Shown piece after piece: positions 8,440-47,244 of a stretch of DNA of 47,244 nucleotides. The stretch spans positions 1 to 47,244 of the IMG/VR virus record IMGVR_UViG_3300037760_000081, one strand, 5' to 3'. Every line of letters starts with the position of its first letter. The stretch's first letter is position 1. The notes under the pieces were generated by a model. That model worked only from the letters and a program-made list of their open reading frames with translations. It was not told the DNA's origin and did no database searches. Made by a program: the position numbers and the translations under genes. The stretch is from a virus. Its lineage: Duplodnaviria > Caudoviricetes.

Positions 8440-8810
8440 TGCCGAGCAAGGGCGATGTTGTTTCTGCCACGGTGGTTGGTACGTACAGCCACTGCGGTAA
8501 CCGGGAGGAGCACAAGACCGGCTATCACATTGTGGACGTTGGCAAGGGTCGCCAGGTGGCGCTGCCGCCCGACACCGAGTTCGGCGTTGTAGCAAAGTGG
8601 CGTCTCCCCGAGCCGCCCGTGGGTTGCGTGGTGACCATGCCCGATGATGCCGGGCCAAGTCGGCATCTTGTCTGGCGGCGCGAAGCCTTTTTCGGCATGT
8701 CCAGGTGGTTTCCACTGCACCTGGCGCCCAACCTGAGTATCACATGGGAGAGCATTCTCCACCGGTCCAACATGGGGCGCGACCTGACCGTTTACCAGCC
8801 GGAGCGGTAG
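8436..8810 (+). CDS. Hypothetical protein
   Basis: ORF with RBS GGAGG and coupled ends. Confidence 0.6.
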   Translation: MMPSKGDVVSATVVGTYSHCGNREEHKTGYHIVDVGKGRQVALPPDTEFGVVAKWRLPEPPVGCVVTMPDDAGPSRHLVWRREAFFGMSRWFPLHLAPNLSITWESILHRSNMGRDLTVYQPER

Positions 8811-9187
8811 TGAAGTTCGACATGGGGGCGGTTCTGGTCCACTACGGGGCCGCCCCCTTCTCTCCTCGCACAGGTGGATGGACGCCCGTGCGGTGCCCGT
8901 TTCACGAGGACAGGCACGCATCGGCAGCAGTGAATGGTGCCGAAGGCCGGTTCCATTGTTTCGTGTGCGGCATTCATGAGGATGTGATCGGTCTGATTAT
9001 GGAGCGTGAGCATGTCAGTTTTCAGACTGCCGTCACGGAGGCTGAGGCGATCACTGGCCAGCGCGCAGAAGCGGTACGCGACCAGCCGGAGCTTGGCGGA
9101 TGGTTTCCTCAACGCCAGAGGCATTCCCCCGGGGTGGGCAGACAGGTGGGGGCTTGGCGTAGTCGCCTCGCCGGCGCCCTCGCATGA
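8810..9187 (+). CDS. DNA primase zinc-finger (CHC2) subunit
   Basis: RCPFHEDRHASA...FHCFVCG. Confidence 0.85.
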   Translation: MKFDMGAVLVHYGAAPFSPRTGGWTPVRCPFHEDRHASAAVNGAEGRFHCFVCGIHEDVIGLIMEREHVSFQTAVTEAEAITGQRAEAVRDQPELGGWFPQRQRHSPGVGRQVGAWRSRLAGALA

Positions 9188-9683
9188 GCGGTTTGCCGGC
9201 CGGCTATGCATCCCCTACCGCAACCGGGCGGGTGTGATAGCACTCAAGTTTCGATGTATGCAAGACCACAACTGCAAAGACGAAGGTCACAGTAAATACG
9301 ATCAGCCCGCCGGGCAGACACAGTTTCTGTTCAATGTGAGCGCGGTTGACGGGAAAGAGCAGACGATACATGTTGCAGAGGGCGAAATGGACGCGCTTGT
9401 TTTGTCGGAAGTGTTGGGCGAACCGGTTGTCGGCGTGCCTGGGGTGGACCATTGGCATGACCACTGGCCGGCGCACTTCGCAGGGTTCGGACGAATAGTG
9501 CTATGGCAGCAGGGCGACAAAGCGGGGCGAACCATGGGCTCCCTCTGGGGACGGAAACTTGGCGCGGAACTGGTGGAGCTGCCGACAGGTCACGACGTTA
9601 ACTCCTACTACCTGGAGGTTGGCGACGCCGGCATTCGACAACTAAACGGGGGCGACGATGAAAACCTGGCGGATCACGATTGA
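9012..9683 (+). CDS. DNA primase TOPRIM subunit
   Basis: GRLCIPY...KFR...VAEGEMDAL...GVPG...DVN; start uncertain. Confidence 0.85.
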   Translation: MSVFRLPSRRLRRSLASAQKRYATSRSLADGFLNARGIPPGWADRWGLGVVASPAPSHERFAGRLCIPYRNRAGVIALKFRCMQDHNCKDEGHSKYDQPAGQTQFLFNVSAVDGKEQTIHVAEGEMDALVLSEVLGEPVVGVPGVDHWHDHWPAHFAGFGRIVLWQQGDKAGRTMGSLWGRKLGAELVELPTGHDVNSYYLEVGDAGIRQLNGGDDENLADHD

Positions 9684-13166: not shown

Positions 13167-13988
13167 TCACCCCTTGCGGGGTGGCAGTAGCGACGGATCG
13201 TTGTTGAACTGGGCCACGTAGTACGGCTCCGGGATACGCCCCCCCGGCTTGAGGTCATGCCCGTGCAGCTTGGCGAATGCCCTGACCTGTTCGCACAGGT
13301 CCCGCTTCTGCGTGAGCGTTAGCCCCGCCCGGCTTGGTGGCGTCTGCGGTGCCGGCTTAGCCGGTGACGCCGAAGCCTTGGCCTGCCGCATGCCCTCACC
13401 AGCCGCCCGCATGCCCTGCGCGTACTGGGTGCCGTTCGGGTTGTCCCGGAGCCATCGGCGGATCGTGTCTATCTTCGCCCGGGTGATACTGCTAGCGCCG
13501 CGTTCCTGCGCCAGTGCCAGCAGGGCAGGCCGTTTCATGCGGTCGTACTCGTCCGGCTCCACGGCCGGCTCCGGCTTGACCTCCGGCACTGGCGCCGGCT
13601 CCGGCTTTGGCTCCGGCTTTGGTGCCGGAGGCCGGGAACCGTTGGCCATTGCCGCCGAATACTCAGCCATGATCCTAGGCGAAACTCGCCCCTTGTTGGC
13701 TACCGGGTAACCCTCGCCGCGTGCCCATTCACGCACCAGCCGGTTGTGGTCCCGGTCGCGGCCACCGTTGCCGTTGGACCGCTTGCCGTTACCGGTAGCC
13801 GATGCCGATGCCTGCGCCCGGCGCGCGACATACCGGAAAGGCTCCAGCGCAGCCCGCAGTTCCTTTGCGTGCCGGCTGGTGAGGTCAATCTCGTATTGCA
13901 CCCCGTCCAGCCCGAACCGCACGGTTTCGGCCGCCTCTTGCTCCGGGTTCAGGTCATCCAACAGCCGGATAATGGTATGTTTTGCCAT
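13167..13988 (-). CDS. lsr2: Lsr2-family nucleoid-associated protein with a second Lsr2 DNA-binding domain
   Basis: LLDDL...AETVRFGLDGVQYEIDL dimerisation domain; VREWARGEGYPVANKGRV and VRAFAKLHGHDLKPGGRIP DNA-binding domains. Confidence 0.92.
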   Translation of the reverse strand: MAKHTIIRLLDDLNPEQEAAETVRFGLDGVQYEIDLTSRHAKELRAALEPFRYVARRAQASASATGNGKRSNGNGGRDRDHNRLVREWARGEGYPVANKGRVSPRIMAEYSAAMANGSRPPAPKPEPKPEPAPVPEVKPEPAVEPDEYDRMKRPALLALAQERGASSITRAKIDTIRRWLRDNPNGTQYAQGMRAAGEGMRQAKASASPAKPAPQTPPSRAGLTLTQKRDLCEQVRAFAKLHGHDLKPGGRIPEPYYVAQFNNDPSLLPPRKG

Positions 13989-22467: not shown

Positions 22468-22777
22468 GGCCTCCACAAGGCTCACCCTTACGAACGAACC
22501 TACCCTAACCAACGGTCAACGCCCCTGTGTGGCTCTCAGCGGGGTTTTCGGGTGGGTTTTGTTGAATGCGACCCCCCCCCCAATGCGCCTCACGGCGTAG
22601 GGGGTCGCTCTAGCGCGCTGATCCTGTAGTGGGCAGGTGGTCAGTTAGCCCTGGAACAGCGCCGCAAGTCATGACAGGCCGGAGGTGGGCTCGGATGGGC
22701 CGAAAACGCGCGTCTCCTCCTGCGCGCGCACACGCGCGCACGCGCGAGGCCGGTTCGAGGAACGGGGTAGCGCCTGC

Positions 22778-24208
22778 ATGACTCTCACCAGAAAACAAAA
22801 AGCCGCCAACACCCGCAAGCGAAACAAGTTCCTGGAACTTGTCGCCGCCGGCATGAGCGTCAAAGAAGCATGCCGTGAAATCGGCGTACACCGGACCACC
22901 TACCAGCGGTGGAGGTCAGAAAACCCCGACTGGTCCATTCGGATGGACCAGGTGCAGTCCGCCGGAATCGCCGACGCATCCAATGGGCGCGTGCCCGGCT
23001 TCGCCGAATTCTGCAAACGGTACCTGCACCAGCCGATCTACGCCCACCAGCAGAAATGGGTGGATCTGCTCGAAGGCAAAACCCTTCACAACCTACACCC
23101 CTCCATGGTCTACGAACAAGGCTCCCCCAACCACATTCTCATTAATACCCCGCCGGAACACGCCAAGTCCACCACCCTCTCAATCAACTACCCGACCTGG
23201 CGGCTATTGCGCGAACCCAACATCAAAATCATGTTGGTTTCCAAACGGGCCGAACTGGCAGCCGAATTCCTCTACGCAATCAAACACCGGCTGACGCACC
23301 CCCGCTACGCCGAATTGCAGAAAGCGTTCGGCCCCCCCGGTGGATTCAAAGAGGACGCCCCCATCTGGGCGGCCGACCGAATCTACCTCGGATCACAACG
23401 CGACTCCGGCGAAAAAGACCCAACCGTGCAAGCCGTCGGCCTAGGCGGGCAGATTTACGGAGTCCGGTCCGACCTGATCATTGTTGACGACGCCGTGATC
23501 CTCTCCAATGCCCACGAGTTCGAGAAGCAAACCCGCTGGCTGCAACAAGAGGTCATTACGCGACTCGGCACCTACGGCACTTTGCTTGTGGTCGGAACCC
23601 GCGTCGACGCGATCGACCTGTACCGGCACCTACGCACCCCCGACCTGTATCCCACCGGGGAATCACCCTGGACCTACCTGGCGCAGCCGGCGGTGCTCGA
23701 ATACGCCGAAGACCCGAAACTGTGGGTCACTCTCTGGCCAAAGGCGCAAGAACCCTGGCCCGGGTCCAAGGACGTTAAACCCGACGACGACGGGCTGTAC
23801 CCGAAGTGGACCGGTCCGTACCTGGCTCGCCGGCGAGGCATGATCGCCTCCCGCACCTGGGCGTTGGCATACCAACAGGCCGAAGTCGAAGAAGACGCCG
23901 TGTTCCCCGCCGAAAAGGTCAAGGCGTGCCTGTCCCAACGCAACGCCGGCAACCTGCGCCGGGACGAATGCGGGCGCGACATGAACGGCCTCTACGTCAT
24001 CGGCTCCATGGACCCTGCCATGGTGGGCGACACCGGAGTTGTCGTCAAGGCGGTCGACCGGCACACCCGGAAACGGTGGATACTCGACGGCCGGCTACGC
24101 ACCGGAGCCACCCCCGGCTGGATTCGTTCCACAATCAAAGAGCTGACCACGATGTACGGTATCCATGAATGGAGGATTGAAAAGAACGCCTTCCAGGCGT
24201 TCTTATAG
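22778..24208 (+). CDS. terL: Terminase large subunit, part 1 (N-terminal HTH, ATPase, start of nuclease)
   Basis: HTH (VKEACREIGVHRTTYQRWR), Walker A PPEHAKST, LIIVDD, VGTR and nuclease GSMDPA; ends EKNAFQAFL-stop. Confidence 0.92.
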   Translation: MTLTRKQKAANTRKRNKFLELVAAGMSVKEACREIGVHRTTYQRWRSENPDWSIRMDQVQSAGIADASNGRVPGFAEFCKRYLHQPIYAHQQKWVDLLEGKTLHNLHPSMVYEQGSPNHILINTPPEHAKSTTLSINYPTWRLLREPNIKIMLVSKRAELAAEFLYAIKHRLTHPRYAELQKAFGPPGGFKEDAPIWAADRIYLGSQRDSGEKDPTVQAVGLGGQIYGVRSDLIIVDDAVILSNAHEFEKQTRWLQQEVITRLGTYGTLLVVGTRVDAIDLYRHLRTPDLYPTGESPWTYLAQPAVLEYAEDPKLWVTLWPKAQEPWPGSKDVKPDDDGLYPKWTGPYLARRRGMIASRTWALAYQQAEVEEDAVFPAEKVKACLSQRNAGNLRRDECGRDMNGLYVIGSMDPAMVGDTGVVVKAVDRHTRKRWILDGRLRTGATPGWIRSTIKELTTMYGIHEWRIEKNAFQAFL

Positions 24209-24209
24209 C

Positions 24210-24623
24210 TTAACCCAAGACCCGGAACTGCAAGAATGGCTCGGCTCGCAAGGTGTCAGACTATCCGAACACCACACCGGCAAAAACAAGTGGGACCCGA
24301 TGTTCGGTGTGGCATCCATGGCGATCCTGTTCGAGCTGCAACTCATCGACATCCCCGGACTCAACCGGCCAGAGGCCATCAAGCAGCTAGTTGAACAACT
24401 TATCGTCTGGTCACCGGAATCTCAGGCAAAAGACGACATGGTAATGGCCCTCTGGTTCGCCGAAATCCGGGCACGCGAAGTATGCCAAGCCGTGTCACTC
24501 GACGCAGACGGCCCCAGTCCCTACCAGCGGAACCGCTGGCTATCAAAGCGAGGGCGCAGAAACCAAGTCGTCATAAACCTGAACGACCTGGCGGCGGCAA
24601 AGGTGCAACATGCTGGACGCTGA
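24210..24623 (+). CDS. terL: Terminase large subunit, part 2 (C-terminal nuclease), in the +1 frame
   Basis: TQDPELQEWL...HHTGKNKWDP...KDDMVMALWF; joins part 1 as FLTQD if the 7 nt at 24206-24212 are skipped. Confidence 0.88.
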   Translation, partial: LTQDPELQEWLGSQGVRLSEHHTGKNKWDPMFGVASMAILFELQLIDIPGLNRPEAIKQLVEQLIVWSPESQAKDDMVMALWFAEIRAREVCQAVSLDADGPSPYQRNRWLSKRGRRNQVVINLNDLAAAKVQHAGR

Positions 24624-26418
24624 ACAGATCCACAAAAAGCTGCTGGTACTCAGGCGGCGCAACCATACCACAGACCAGAAGTGGGAAGATGTTCACGCCG
24701 CCCGTCGCGGCGACCTTGCCATGGTGGCGCCCGACATGGTGTCCGAGGACTTCCCGAGGCAGATTGTTGCCAATTTTGTCGACACCGTAGCTCGCGACCT
24801 GGCCGAAGTGTTCGCACCCATGCCCTCGTTCAACTGCTCATCGGCCACAATGGCATCCGACAATGCCCGCAAGTTCGCCGACAAGCGCACCAAGATTGTC
24901 CATTGGTATGTGAACCATTCCAAGCTTGCCGAACAGTCTCTGTACGGGGCCGACCATTACGTCACTTACGCCCGGCAGGTGTTCTACCTGGAGCCGGATT
25001 TCGAGGCGAAAGCCCCGAGGATCGTGGTGGAGGACCCCCGGGGTGGGTATCCTGAGTTCGACCGCTGGGGCAGAGTGGTCACCTACACCCGGCGAACCTA
25101 CTGCGATGCTGAGGTGTTGGCCTCCCTCTACCCTGAGTACGCGGGGTTAATCCGGAAGCATGCCAAGTCCACTCCTCACACGGGCGAGACACAGATCGAA
25201 CTGGTTCGCTACTGTGATGCGGATCAGATTTCGCTGGTGCTGGTGGCGCAACATCCGGTGATGTTGGAGGACATTCCCAATCCGCTGCACGAATGCCCTG
25301 TGGTTGTCATGCGGAAGCCCTGGGTCGATGAACACATGCCTAAGGGTCAGTTTGATGACGTGATCTGGGTGCAGATTGCGCGGGACGTGCTTGCCAAGCT
25401 CCAGATGAGTGCAACCGAAAAGCAGGTGCAGGCGCCGCTGGCGTTGCCCAACGATGTTCAGGAGCTGCCTTACGGGCCTGATGCCTATATCCGAACCAAC
25501 ACGCCTGAAAAGGTTCAGCGGGTGGGTTTGGAAATGGGCACCACCGCTTTTGCGCAACAGGAGCTGATGGTTCAGGAAATGCAGCGGGGGGCGCGTTACT
25601 CTGAGGCGCGGACCGGCGGCATTGACGCCAGCATTATCACCGGCAAGGGCGTCGAAGCCCTGATGGGCGCTTTTGACACGCAGATCAAAACCTACCAGGT
25701 CGCCGCACAGGTCGCGTTGGAGGACGTGATCCGGCTCTGTTTCAAAATGGACACCACGTACTGGCCGGACTTGGAGCGTACGATCCGTGGCCAGTCCCAT
25801 GGCGCCCCATACAAGGTGACCTACAAGCCCTCTAGGGATATCCAGGGCGACTTTAGTTGCAATGTGTCGTTTGGGTTTGCGGCCGGGCTTGACCCGAACC
25901 GGGCCGTGGTCATGATGTTGCAACTACGCGCCGAAAAGGTCTTCTCCCGCGACTTTTTCGCCCGCAGCCTGCCGTTCGACTTTGACGTGAATTCGGAGCT
26001 GTCGAAAGTCCAGGTTGAGGATGCCCGTGACGCACTGTTGCAATCGATGTTCGCGTTGGCGCAGGCGATCCCGGCCTATGCGCAGCAAGGTATGGACCCC
26101 GCGCCCGTGGTGCACCAGATGTCTCAGGTGATCCAGGGCCTGCAAAAGGGGCGCCCGGTGGAGGAAGTTGTGTCGGAGGTGTTCGCGCCCCCTGAGCCGG
26201 CCGCCCCTCCGGGGTCAGAAAGTCCAGTAGAGGGCGGGGCCTCTGAGGGCGGCCCCGGTGGCGGGCTCACCAGCTCCGGCCTGATGACCGGCGTCCCGGC
26301 GGGGCAGGCGGGGCAGGCACCGGGGGGCCGGCCGGACCTGTCGGTCATGCTGGCTGGGCTCACCGGCTCGGGTCAGCCCCAGATGTCCGCCTCCACGATG
26401 CGGCGACGGCGTTTCTAG
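24610..26418 (+). CDS. Portal protein
   Basis: 602 aa directly after the terminase; IVANFVD...ARDLAEV and ITGKGVEALMG motifs. Confidence 0.85.
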   Translation: MLDAEQIHKKLLVLRRRNHTTDQKWEDVHAARRGDLAMVAPDMVSEDFPRQIVANFVDTVARDLAEVFAPMPSFNCSSATMASDNARKFADKRTKIVHWYVNHSKLAEQSLYGADHYVTYARQVFYLEPDFEAKAPRIVVEDPRGGYPEFDRWGRVVTYTRRTYCDAEVLASLYPEYAGLIRKHAKSTPHTGETQIELVRYCDADQISLVLVAQHPVMLEDIPNPLHECPVVVMRKPWVDEHMPKGQFDDVIWVQIARDVLAKLQMSATEKQVQAPLALPNDVQELPYGPDAYIRTNTPEKVQRVGLEMGTTAFAQQELMVQEMQRGARYSEARTGGIDASIITGKGVEALMGAFDTQIKTYQVAAQVALEDVIRLCFKMDTTYWPDLERTIRGQSHGAPYKVTYKPSRDIQGDFSCNVSFGFAAGLDPNRAVVMMLQLRAEKVFSRDFFARSLPFDFDVNSELSKVQVEDARDALLQSMFALAQAIPAYAQQGMDPAPVVHQMSQVIQGLQKGRPVEEVVSEVFAPPEPAAPPGSESPVEGGASEGGPGGGLTSSGLMTGVPAGQAGQAPGGRPDLSVMLAGLTGSGQPQMSASTMRRRRF

Positions 26419-26749
26419 CTGCTGGAGCAGCGCAAGGCTTACCCCGAATAGGGGCAAAGCCGCCACCATGAGCAGTATGCCTGGGTGTGGTGCAATTGCG
26501 TACGCCCACATTGGGCCGGCAATGCAGGCGAATATGCCAAAGTGGTTCACGGCTTTAGCCAAGCGTATCAGTGTGGACATGAGCGGGATTGTATCAAGCT
26601 ATGCCTTTTAGGAGCCAGGCTCAGCGGCGTTGGATGCACGCCAACCGGCCAGACATGGCCCGTCGTTGGGAGGAAGAGACCCCCACCGGGCGCCGGGTGC
26701 CGAGGAAGCTCGGCAAGAAAGCCCGCCCGAAGAAACGGAGTAAGTAGGA

Positions 26750-36719: not shown

Positions 36720-36791
36720 CGCGGGTAGGTGCGTCGGTCGCACACAGGGCTCATGTCCCTGCGTTAACCGGTTCGACTCCGGTACCCGCAA
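36720..36791 (+). tRNA. tRNA-Met(CAU), initiator-like
   Basis: CGCGGGT/ACCCGCA acceptor with C1:A72 mismatch, anticodon stem CAGGG-CTCATGT-CCCTG, T-arm ACCGG-TTCGACT-CCGGT; short D-loop, no encoded CCA. Confidence 0.75.
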
Positions 36792-36922
36792 CTCCGCACC
36801 CGTTTACACCGGCAACGGGATCGCGTGTATTGGACCGGGAGTCGTGGACGCCGGCTGACCTATCCCCACGGGTTGGCTGTTGGTTCACGCAAACACTTTC
36901 TCTCCAAAGGTGGGTGTTTTGT

Positions 36923-45880: not shown

Positions 45881-47083
45881 TTAAGCTACCCGTCGCCGGC
45901 TGAACAGGTCAACCACCGTAGCCAACGGTTCACTCGGTTGGGGGACCTCACGGCTAATTTGGTCATGGTTAGCCACAGATTGGCCATCGGGTTGTGAAAC
46001 CGGCTCAGGCTCAGGGTCCGGTGTCCCGAACCGCATCGCCTCGTCCAAAGCCGCATCCTCTTCGTTCCAACCGATGTAGCGCCTTGTCATCTCTGGCGTG
46101 GTGTGGTCCAAAAGCCGCTGCGCGGCGTGAATGCCCCAGTTGGCGGCAACCCACCTGCCGCCGGAACGGCGCAGCGTGTGACCGCCCTCCCCCGACAGGT
46201 CAACCTCGGGGCCGTAGAAGTCGCGCAAGACGCGCTGTATGGAGCGCGTGACGTTTTCCGGCGTCATGGGCTGATCCGGGTAAATGGGCCATGTGGCCCG
46301 CGCCTTCGTCACCCCGGCGGACAGGTGGTGGGTGTGCAGCTTCTTGGCCAGCACCGGCCAAGAAGGTTCGGGCTCGCCGTACAGCGGCACGAACCATGCC
46401 AGGTACGCCTCTAGCTCCCGCGCGATGACTGGCCCTATCGGCACCCGCCCCCCGGCCACGACCCGCCTCATCTTGACGTTGTAGAGCCGCGCCCACCCCT
46501 CGTCCCGATGGAGGTCTTCCCAGCGAATCGCAGCCAGGCTGGACGAACGCAACGCCCACCACAATCCCAGGGTCACCATGAGGCGGTCTCGGGGGTGAGC
46601 GGCACAGTCGATGACCTGGCCCCACTGTTCGTGGGGGATTCTCAGGTGGGTGGGTTGGTCGCGGCGCTCCCCCTCTTCCCGCTTGGCCTTGGTGGTGCTG
46701 ATTTCGTGCTCAGCTCGGAACCCCGGGTCGATCCACCCCTCCCGACGCAGCATTTCGACGAAGTACCGGAGCGTGCTCCGGTCCAGGGTTAGGGTGCTGC
46801 CCTTGCGTCCGGTGCGGGGACGACCCCGGTTGGTGACGACCCTTGCCGCCTGGGCGGCCGGTGACTCTCCCGTCCAGAGGTCCAGGATCGCGTCCTTGAT
46901 GTGGTGCGGGGTGAGGTTCCGGGTGGCGGTGTGCTCCCCCCGGGGGGCCTGCCGGGCGAGCGCGGCGAGGGTGCGCCGTTGGATGCGGATGGTGCCCGGG
47001 TCTAGCCCCCGGTCGGCTTCACCCCGCAGGAACGCCTCCGTGGCCTCGGCTAGGGTGACTTTGGGGATTGGGCGGCGTGCCAT
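45881..47083 (-). CDS. int: Tyrosine recombinase / integrase
   Basis: Catalytic R (ALRSS), K (NVKM), HxxR (GHTLRR), H (LLDH) and Y (TRRY); RBS AGGAGAGG. Confidence 0.9.
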   Translation of the reverse strand: MARRPIPKVTLAEATEAFLRGEADRGLDPGTIRIQRRTLAALARQAPRGEHTATRNLTPHHIKDAILDLWTGESPAAQAARVVTNRGRPRTGRKGSTLTLDRSTLRYFVEMLRREGWIDPGFRAEHEISTTKAKREEGERRDQPTHLRIPHEQWGQVIDCAAHPRDRLMVTLGLWWALRSSSLAAIRWEDLHRDEGWARLYNVKMRRVVAGGRVPIGPVIARELEAYLAWFVPLYGEPEPSWPVLAKKLHTHHLSAGVTKARATWPIYPDQPMTPENVTRSIQRVLRDFYGPEVDLSGEGGHTLRRSGGRWVAANWGIHAAQRLLDHTTPEMTRRYIGWNEEDAALDEAMRFGTPDPEPEPVSQPDGQSVANHDQISREVPQPSEPLATVVDLFSRRRVA

Positions 47084-47244
47084 GGCAACCTCTCCTAGTG
47101 TCGCGCTGGAAACGCAGGGTTGCCGTATGCCATCATATCAGACATACGGGAAAGTCGCGCAGAAACATGGAGTTCTCTGGGGTATCCCGACGTACCTGCA
47201 TCTACCAGGCAATATTGACGTTGGTGACTAGCAGTTTTGACCCT
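47050..47244. repeat. Terminal overlap copy 2 (matches 1..194)
   Basis: Direct comparison; one extra G. Confidence 0.95.

Follow-up and report, generated by a model that had tools for sequence, protein, structure and literature searches.

Reading a gene by hopping over a stop codon is rarely seen in nature. In the accessible sections of the literature, natural programmed bypassing is established for gene 60 of phage T4 and for Magnusiomyces mitochondria, and a bypass in the phiHau3 terminase is supported, with three interrupted genes among 100 examined, all with UUA (PMC10732093). The two Hau3 gaps read GGC/TTA CTCC GGT and TCT/TTA ACGG TCC, where the slash follows the take-off codon that precedes UUA; UUA is the first codon of the gap, it stays unread in the A site, and bypass takes place when its tRNA is missing (PMC10732093). 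Gaps of the T4 gene 60 type span about 50 nucleotides (nt), with 20 in the shortest clade (bioRxiv 2022.08.31.505936), and a 2016 review states that in-frame stop hopping is not known to occur naturally (PMC5009743). In this study, we show that the large terminase gene (terL) of an uncultured phage (Duplodnaviria; Caudoviricetes) recorded in IMG/VR as IMGVR_UViG_3300037760_000081 is interrupted by seven extra bases, which leave a stop codon flanked by two copies of the same leucine codon. We argue that this gap is probably crossed by a short translational bypass. The window referred to throughout is the whole stretch of DNA analysed, positions 1 to 47,244 of that record. In the literature covered, which left out most subscription papers, we found no gap in this terminase family and no natural stop-led short gap in an actinophage, and the available part of the MosaicProt paper contains nothing on phages.

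terL is the only DNA-packaging motor gene found in this phage. Around the break its plus strand reads TTC (24200-24202), TTA (24203-24205), TAG (24206-24208), C (24209), TTA (24210-24212) and ACC (24213-24215). The 5' part of the gene (22778..24205, 476 codons) encodes an N-terminal helix-turn-helix (HTH), the ATPase and the first half of an RNase H-like nuclease including the invariant residues D412 and E468; the corresponding open reading frame (ORF), from ATG 22778 to TAG 24208 (476 amino acids), matches phrog_38, terminase large subunit (E 2.5e-56), and has HTH matches in Pfam. The 3' part (24213..24623, plus strand, 136 codons) lies in the +1 frame, which is open to TGA 24623, and encodes the remaining nuclease domain with the invariant D551. 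Locus L001, whose TerL is intact, shares 89.6% identity with it at the C-terminus, and the ratio of nonsynonymous to synonymous substitutions (dN/dS) against that locus is 0.034. Between the two parts lies the 7-nt coding gap (24206..24212, plus strand), made up of the stop UAG, the spacer C and the predicted landing codon UUA. This insert, as spelled out in an earlier sequence-only reading of the window, is confirmed in the window and in a Logan contig from run X1 (47,080 nt, mean word depth 14), which is identical over 22700-26500 with no other letter and no gap. The contig is a second assembly of probably the same sample and not an independent occurrence, and contigs drop rare variants; the unchanged insert nevertheless argues against an error of one assembler. 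Run X2 yielded short pieces only, with the site outside their coverage. An intron or homing element in the window is ruled out by the 7-nt size, transcriptional slippage was rejected as there is no homopolymer run at the site, and no promoter- or terminator-like site was found near the gap.

Profile matches and a predicted structure assign the gene to the phage large terminases, with an ATPase and an RNase H-like nuclease. In a profile search terL resembles T7-like TerL chains, and the model of the intact homologue P0123 (predicted local distance difference test score 84) matches the TerL structures of T4, D6E, Sf6, G20c and P22 as well as nuclease domains. On an intact homologue PF17289 begins at residue 410 and crosses the break, which places the break within the nuclease domain. 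D412, E468 and D551 are invariant in 42 aligned proteins and, from general knowledge of the fold, are presumably catalytic; the 476-residue product would be without D551, which lies past the break. We examined this site in 166 related loci, 163 of which span it (many are duplicates, leaving 79 distinct 56-nt segments). None of the 163 carries an insert, 160 being gap-free and three being without two residues, and 118 of the 119 best homologous proteins, the window's own excluded, cross the site without a change in length, the exception being the shortened P0009 discussed below. The closest relatives with DNA (86-90%) read TTC CTG ACT, and skipping 7 nt in the window gives the family's F-L-T-Q-D spacing. 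The alignment across FQAFL/TQD together with the conserved 3' part thus upholds the earlier proposal that a 7-nt skip restores the C-terminus of the nuclease. The same reading had proposed a search for the insert in relatives, and here the result was negative, both in the 163 loci and in IMG/VR, where an exact 18-nt junction pattern gave six matches attributable to chance, none in a terminase and none similar to the window, and a degenerate E-x-N-A-F-Q-x-F-L-stop pattern gave no match in a set that may have excluded the record of the window itself.

Enumeration of 18 take-off and landing pairs left two that give the exact homologue, namely UUA to UUA (7 nt, matching at three of three bases) and UUC to AGC (7 nt, one of three). 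A 10-nt hop from UUC to UUA (two of three) deletes Leu476, and a +1 shift at UUA (one of three) adds two residues. Only the TTA to TTA hop combines a full match with the exact product, so that the matched-codon hop of the sequence-only reading, with the take-off and landing codons named there, is the best parse. The sequence, this enumeration and the CTG found in intact close relatives all point to the UUA of Leu476 (24203..24205, plus strand) as the predicted take-off codon. TTA is the rarest codon (7 of 10,395 in 34 selected window ORFs; 18 of 8,041 in the complete relative G001), and the Leu476 codon differs from the relatives' CTG by two changes towards it, which create the match between take-off and landing. 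It is possible that UUA was chosen because it has the weakest codon-anticodon pairing among the leucine codons and adds two pairs to the hairpin described below.

Our interpretation is that the gap is probably a stop-led 7-nt translational bypass by peptidyl-tRNA-Leu(UAA). While the ribosome waits at the UAG stop, the tRNA-Leu would release the first UUA, slide seven bases as peptidyl-tRNA and re-pair with the second UUA, at which point translation would resume. A minority of passes would give the predicted full-length terminase of 612 residues, and the other passes would release the 476-residue product without the end of the nuclease, the net effect being a throttled terminase output. The all-A/U pairing of UUA, an upstream hairpin and a Shine-Dalgarno (SD)-like stretch may aid take-off.

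The gap works like the Hau3 and gene 60 bypasses in this interpretation, and by defining features it is a member of neither. It shares with phiHau3 and the StrepC.1 and S. catenulae prophages (PMC10732093; Smith et al. 2013 as cited there) a short insert of 7-10 nt in the terL of an integrase-bearing actinophage, synonymous take-off and landing codons (here UUA/UUA, three of three), an SD-like stretch 5' of the gap, and a product predicted to equal the intact homologue. A hairpin also lies beside the take-off site, most of which is found in intact relatives too. In contrast to phiHau3, the terminase of the window belongs to another family and is interrupted at another site (the nuclease domain, in a Beephvirinae-like phage), and its gap is stop-first and not UUA-first; UUA serves as take-off and landing codon, so that the rare tRNA would be needed rather than absent. 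UUA-first parses of the window gap give a match at one of three bases or lose Leu476. The phiHau3 precedent named in the sequence-only reading does exist (PMC10732093), and the independence asserted there agrees with the unrelated site and lineage, the nearest cultured terminases being those of Beephvirinae Streptomyces phages (45-47%). Like the window, T4 gene 60 (PMC5009743; bioRxiv 2024.12.09.627546) has a UAG that immediately follows the take-off codon, a landing codon identical to the take-off codon, and a 5' stem-loop that could push the ribosome as the mRNA exits. However, the window gap is 7 nt and not 50, it lacks the take-off stem-loop that lies within the gene 60 gap, and no sequence relation was found or expected. 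Compared with the synthetic stop hops made in E. coli (Weiss et al. 1987, via PMC5009743), the window hop would occur naturally and in an essential gene, and it would change the frame (10 nt for one residue versus 9).

The design of the window gap recurs among the Hau3-type terminases themselves. From 25 of the 64 parts of GTDB we recovered at least 30 Hau3-type terL loci, and 27 remained after three weak partial matches were dropped. At the g6/g7 site 11 of the 27 have a gap, six led by TTA and five by one of the stops TGA, TAA and TAG, and 10 of these 11 gaps end in a Gly codon; at g7/g8 a TTA-led gap ending in a Ser codon is present in 5 of 26 parsed loci, one of them in Actinorhabdospora. 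Landing is synonymous in 15 of the 16 gaps, and the shared grammar is a take-off codon, a slow codon (UUA or a stop), 1-4 nt and a synonymous landing codon. Six of the 16 are 7 nt long, consisting of slow codon, one base and landing codon, and the window's TTA/TAG C TTA/ACC has the same layout as these six prophage gaps, with a stop as the slow codon. Repetition of the same design at fixed sites argues for function, and some of the Hau3-type prophages may be decayed. The stop-led gaps of 8-9 nt at g6/g7 (about 692-700; L312, L316, L317, L318 and L337) lie in prophages of cultured Streptomyces and Actinoplanes.

UUA is normally decoded in E. coli. The Hau3 cassette gave no bypass there until its UUA was changed to UAA, whereupon the junction peptide was detected by mass spectrometry (PMC10732093 sections 3.5-3.6). 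A hungry codon of the Hau3 type would work differently at our site: with tRNA-Leu(UAA) missing, tRNA-Phe would leave UUC and land on UUA (10 nt) or AGC (7 nt), and the switch would be tied to bldA. TTC/TTA TAGC TTA/ACC does reproduce exactly the 10 nt by which both Hau3 gaps are spaced, no codon is rarer than TTA, and a TTA-led 7-nt gap whose landing is unmatched occurs in the integrase-bearing phage L216. We nevertheless regard this mechanism as quite unlikely. The 10-nt hop would delete Leu476 from a predicted helix (473-477), and no single-residue deletion occurs in the 163 loci or 118 proteins; its UUC to UUA landing is not synonymous, in contrast to 15 of the 16 Hau3-type gaps; and the 7-nt version would resume on the starved codon itself. 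The portal gene and five other genes also need UUA to be read: six other in-frame TTA codons, one of them in the portal gene, lie in conserved regions aligned with G001. UUA would therefore not gate terL alone, and since UUA must be decoded for the hop, any dependence on the tRNA would be opposite in sign to that of Hau3, so that in the best parse a shortage of the tRNA would block the terminase and not switch it on. The sequence-only reading had taken the gap as gated by bldA or host development. With UAG and not UUA first in the gap, these other TTA codons, and host signs that reach actinobacterial level only, this part of its interpretation is not supported, while the 7-nt hop and the Hau3 precedent are.

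The candidate stimulators lie upstream of the gap. The SD-like stretch (24168..24176, plus strand, with GGAGG at 24171-24175) ends 26 nt before the take-off codon. It scores -9.3 kcal/mol with a generic anti-SD, a score equalled by one and exceeded by none of the 79 distinct relative segments and matched by 5.4% of 800 random codons. The hairpin (24182..24204, plus strand) has a perfect stem of 10 bp and a loop of 3 nt, and the last base paired in its 3' arm is the second one of the take-off codon. It is stronger than all 79 relative segments, 2% of the 800 random codons are as strong, and the fold of 24175-24235 has a z of -3.53, none of 200 shuffles being as good. Both elements are at the top of the range of the relative segments, and the two occur together at 2 of the 800 random codons. 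In local folds the gap stays unpaired, and the fold of 24206-24280 does not surpass that of shuffled sequences (z 0.87). The register of the hairpin is the same in 6 of the 11 gapped g6/g7 Hau3-type sites, with an SD-like stretch 22 nt upstream in most of those. For gene 60, a pushing role has been proposed for mRNA that pairs on leaving the ribosome (bioRxiv 2024.12.09.627546), and by analogy the window hairpin might push in the same way.

A second lineage is broken at the same residue. P0009 (61% identity, on a 46,724-nt contig) and its variant P0125 (on a 7,241-nt contig), known here as protein sequences and not as DNA, end at the same F-L, and the downstream halves P0263 and P0254 are found on contigs of the same two sizes. 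In a quick maximum-likelihood tree of 63 N-terminal parts, P0009/P0125 and the window fall into separate well-supported clades, each nested among intact genes, which forces at least two origins. Of the 508 residues ahead of the break, 4 differ between the two variants, and of the 100 beyond it, 1 does; for a dead C-terminal half, about 13, 8 or 4 differences would be expected at dN/dS values of 0.059, 0.1 or 0.2 (P 2e-5, 0.003 and 0.10), of which 0.059 was measured between the window and L001, where dS is saturated. Depending on the dN/dS assumed, this favors continued selection on the downstream half after the break. Among 130 shorter homologues examined, only P0009 ends exactly at residue 476. 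P0218, on a 3.3-kb contig, ends one residue past the site. Relatives of P0009 in IMG/VR came to 39 loci, and 34 of the 38 new ones show the junction, intact in all 34; the contig of P0009 itself was not found there. Representatives of 50% clusters gave 104 matches, and none of the 100 new ones ends at the site, P0320 ending three residues later. The site may be permissive owing to a pre-existing hairpin, and this would explain why the break arose twice at a single residue.

Other breaks in the family were sought in 299 loci, duplicates included, 253 of them with a portal gene. The window's own portal gene is intact (24610..26418, plus strand; phrog_104, E 5.1e-22), overlaps the end of terL and has an in-frame TTA at 25147. 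Elsewhere, CCG-TAG-CCG or CCG-TAA-CCG occurs in the portal genes of four contigs, as an in-frame 6-nt insert (L303:3960-3971; L308:4417-4428, on the same contig as L341; L342 and L343, about 2595-2603), versus a single CCG in four close relatives (L344-L347, 83-89%). These are candidate in-frame stop hops, the alternative being readthrough with two extra residues. Locus L216, a complete 48-kb integrase-bearing phage, carries a TTA-led 7-nt insert in Walker A (L216:2479-2491) with no matched landing codon, and the TTA of this insert is the only one in its terL and portal genes. Four proteins (P0139, P0140, P0145 and P0264) begin just after Walker A, like the 3' piece of L216, and may mark further breaks or mere contig edges. 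Several candidates were rejected: terL of Streptomyces phage JXY1 (L081:2430-2432, NC_048854.1), annotated as two genes, has a 1-nt shift elsewhere without TTA or matched codons and is probably a sequencing error; the stop in L161 is a point change from AAG to TAG; those in L141 and L189 precede the start; and the portal shifts in L010, L052 and L175 resemble deletions. Some terminase homologues are 860-1270 residues long (P0280, P0282, P0290, P0292, P0297, P0300 and others) against the usual 610-660, and are possibly intein-bearing or fused.

Several points weigh against a working bypass. Its support comes from assembled sequence and comparison, the exact insert was seen in one sample only, and unstimulated stop hops are described as low-level (bioRxiv 2024.12.09.627546). 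P0123, in the same 90% cluster as the window, is intact, so that the window insert is young and could be a dead end. Eight of the ten hairpin pairs are already present in L001 and L002, both of them intact, and Hau3-type loci that lack a gap fold as strongly as gapped ones, so that the hairpin is not diagnostic. In the second lineage, the selection test is not significant at a dN/dS of 0.2 and the pairing of the halves relies on equal contig sizes; since the lineage was seen as proteins only, an intron, a longer insert or a point stop might also account for its break. Lastly, the unmatched insert of L216 shows that the matched rule does not bind every break in this family.

The insert being seen in one sample, the intact close sister P0123 and the presence of an integrase would also fit a dead mutant, in which a recent 7-nt insertion (a CTTA repeat around TAG) killed terL and the phage either survives as a prophage or episome or relies on the terminase of a helper. 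A near-palindrome, at whose foot the site lies, could be a mutation hotspot, and ordinary-looking 1-nt breaks and point stops do occur in the window's family at a low rate. We consider this explanation unlikely. The insert is not a simple tandem duplication, and the leucine codon has also moved from CTG by two changes to the rarest codon, creating the match. Compared with G001, terL is the sole gene with a frame break (among ORFs of at least 80 codons giving a match), and there is no relaxation, with window-only changes at 3 of 130 residues after the break and 16 of 476 before it, a comparison that is uninformative if the insertion is very recent. Moreover, of some 610 residues it is this very one at which the second lineage stops.

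Two further explanations would do without a hop. In a split gene, the 476-residue part would assemble with a C-terminal piece started separately at ATG 24165 in the +1 frame or later. That frame is open from ATG 24165, gene callers predict pieces of 152 and 107 residues, and the downstream piece is kept in both broken lineages, yet we judge this very improbable: the break interrupts the nuclease fold where conserved strands and helices lie on either side, no clear SD is visible by eye for ATG 24165, which would add 16 foreign residues, the starts called in the second lineage are at least 19 residues downstream, and the matched codons would be left unexplained. The release factor 2 (RF2) shift site consists of a codon, a stop and C, with an SD 3 nt away. 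A +1 frameshift at UUA-UAG-C, taken as a shifty stop, would lengthen the product by two residues and would resemble this site, and the +1 frame is open through the gap. However, re-pairing on UAU would match at one of three bases, no relative has an insertion at the site, and the SD-like stretch is 26 nt away, which leaves this the most remote of the explanations considered. The stop-led bypass thus remains our preferred reading.

With regard to the phage itself, the first bases of the window are repeated near 47,050 and the Logan contig runs on across the ends, indicating a circular genome of about 47 kb (62.7% G+C). In the terminal overlap (1-195 and about 47050-47244) the copies are offset by one base part-way, and an exact end match fails. 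A tyrosine integrase (45881..47083, minus strand; PF00589, E 2.3e-9; phrog_1) suggests that the phage is probably temperate. G001 and G413 also have integrases and their terL is intact, so that the gap is not required by a temperate lifestyle. No match to the window integrase was found among cultured phages or in five genomes. An actinobacterial host is likely, the signs, among them an Lsr2-like protein (13167..13988, minus strand; PF11774, E 1.4e-20, and PF23359; phrog_1223), reaching that level and not Streptomyces; the homologue P0070 carries the name Longispora urticae. FlowerPower and its kin have been assigned to cluster BF (PMC9753666), and a cluster BF phage has been termed a podovirus (PMC13097060). 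Searches for TerL in GTDB genomes gave 16 pattern matches, none confirmed, and the window TerL had a match in none of 401 sampled Actinomycetota genomes, in a search without a positive control. The DNA primase is encoded by two overlapping ORFs in different frames (8705-9187 and 9006-9683), a split also present in G001, and a single tRNA-Met(CAT) gene (36720-36792) lies among the structural genes.

If our reading is true, natural bypassing would be widened by a 7-nt hop that is led by a stop, lies in an unrelated terminase family and arose twice at the same residue. The stop-led gaps found in cultured Streptomyces and Actinoplanes prophages and the candidate in-frame stop hops of the portal genes would widen it too. 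A stop could then be the trigger with UUA not needed, which would weaken the view of such gaps as bldA sensors as such. A broader and doubtful idea, which we put forward as speculation, is that the terminase and portal genes of temperate actinophages repeatedly acquire tiny hop cassettes made up of a take-off codon, a slow codon, 0-4 nt and a landing codon, by which head assembly would be throttled or made to sense the host, with stop and UUA interchangeable; the window, with UUA for take-off and landing, would then invert Hau3, since terminase would be made only if tRNA-Leu(UAA) is charged while release factor 1 acts slowly. Essential genes with gaps of this kind would be mis-annotated as split genes or pseudogenes.

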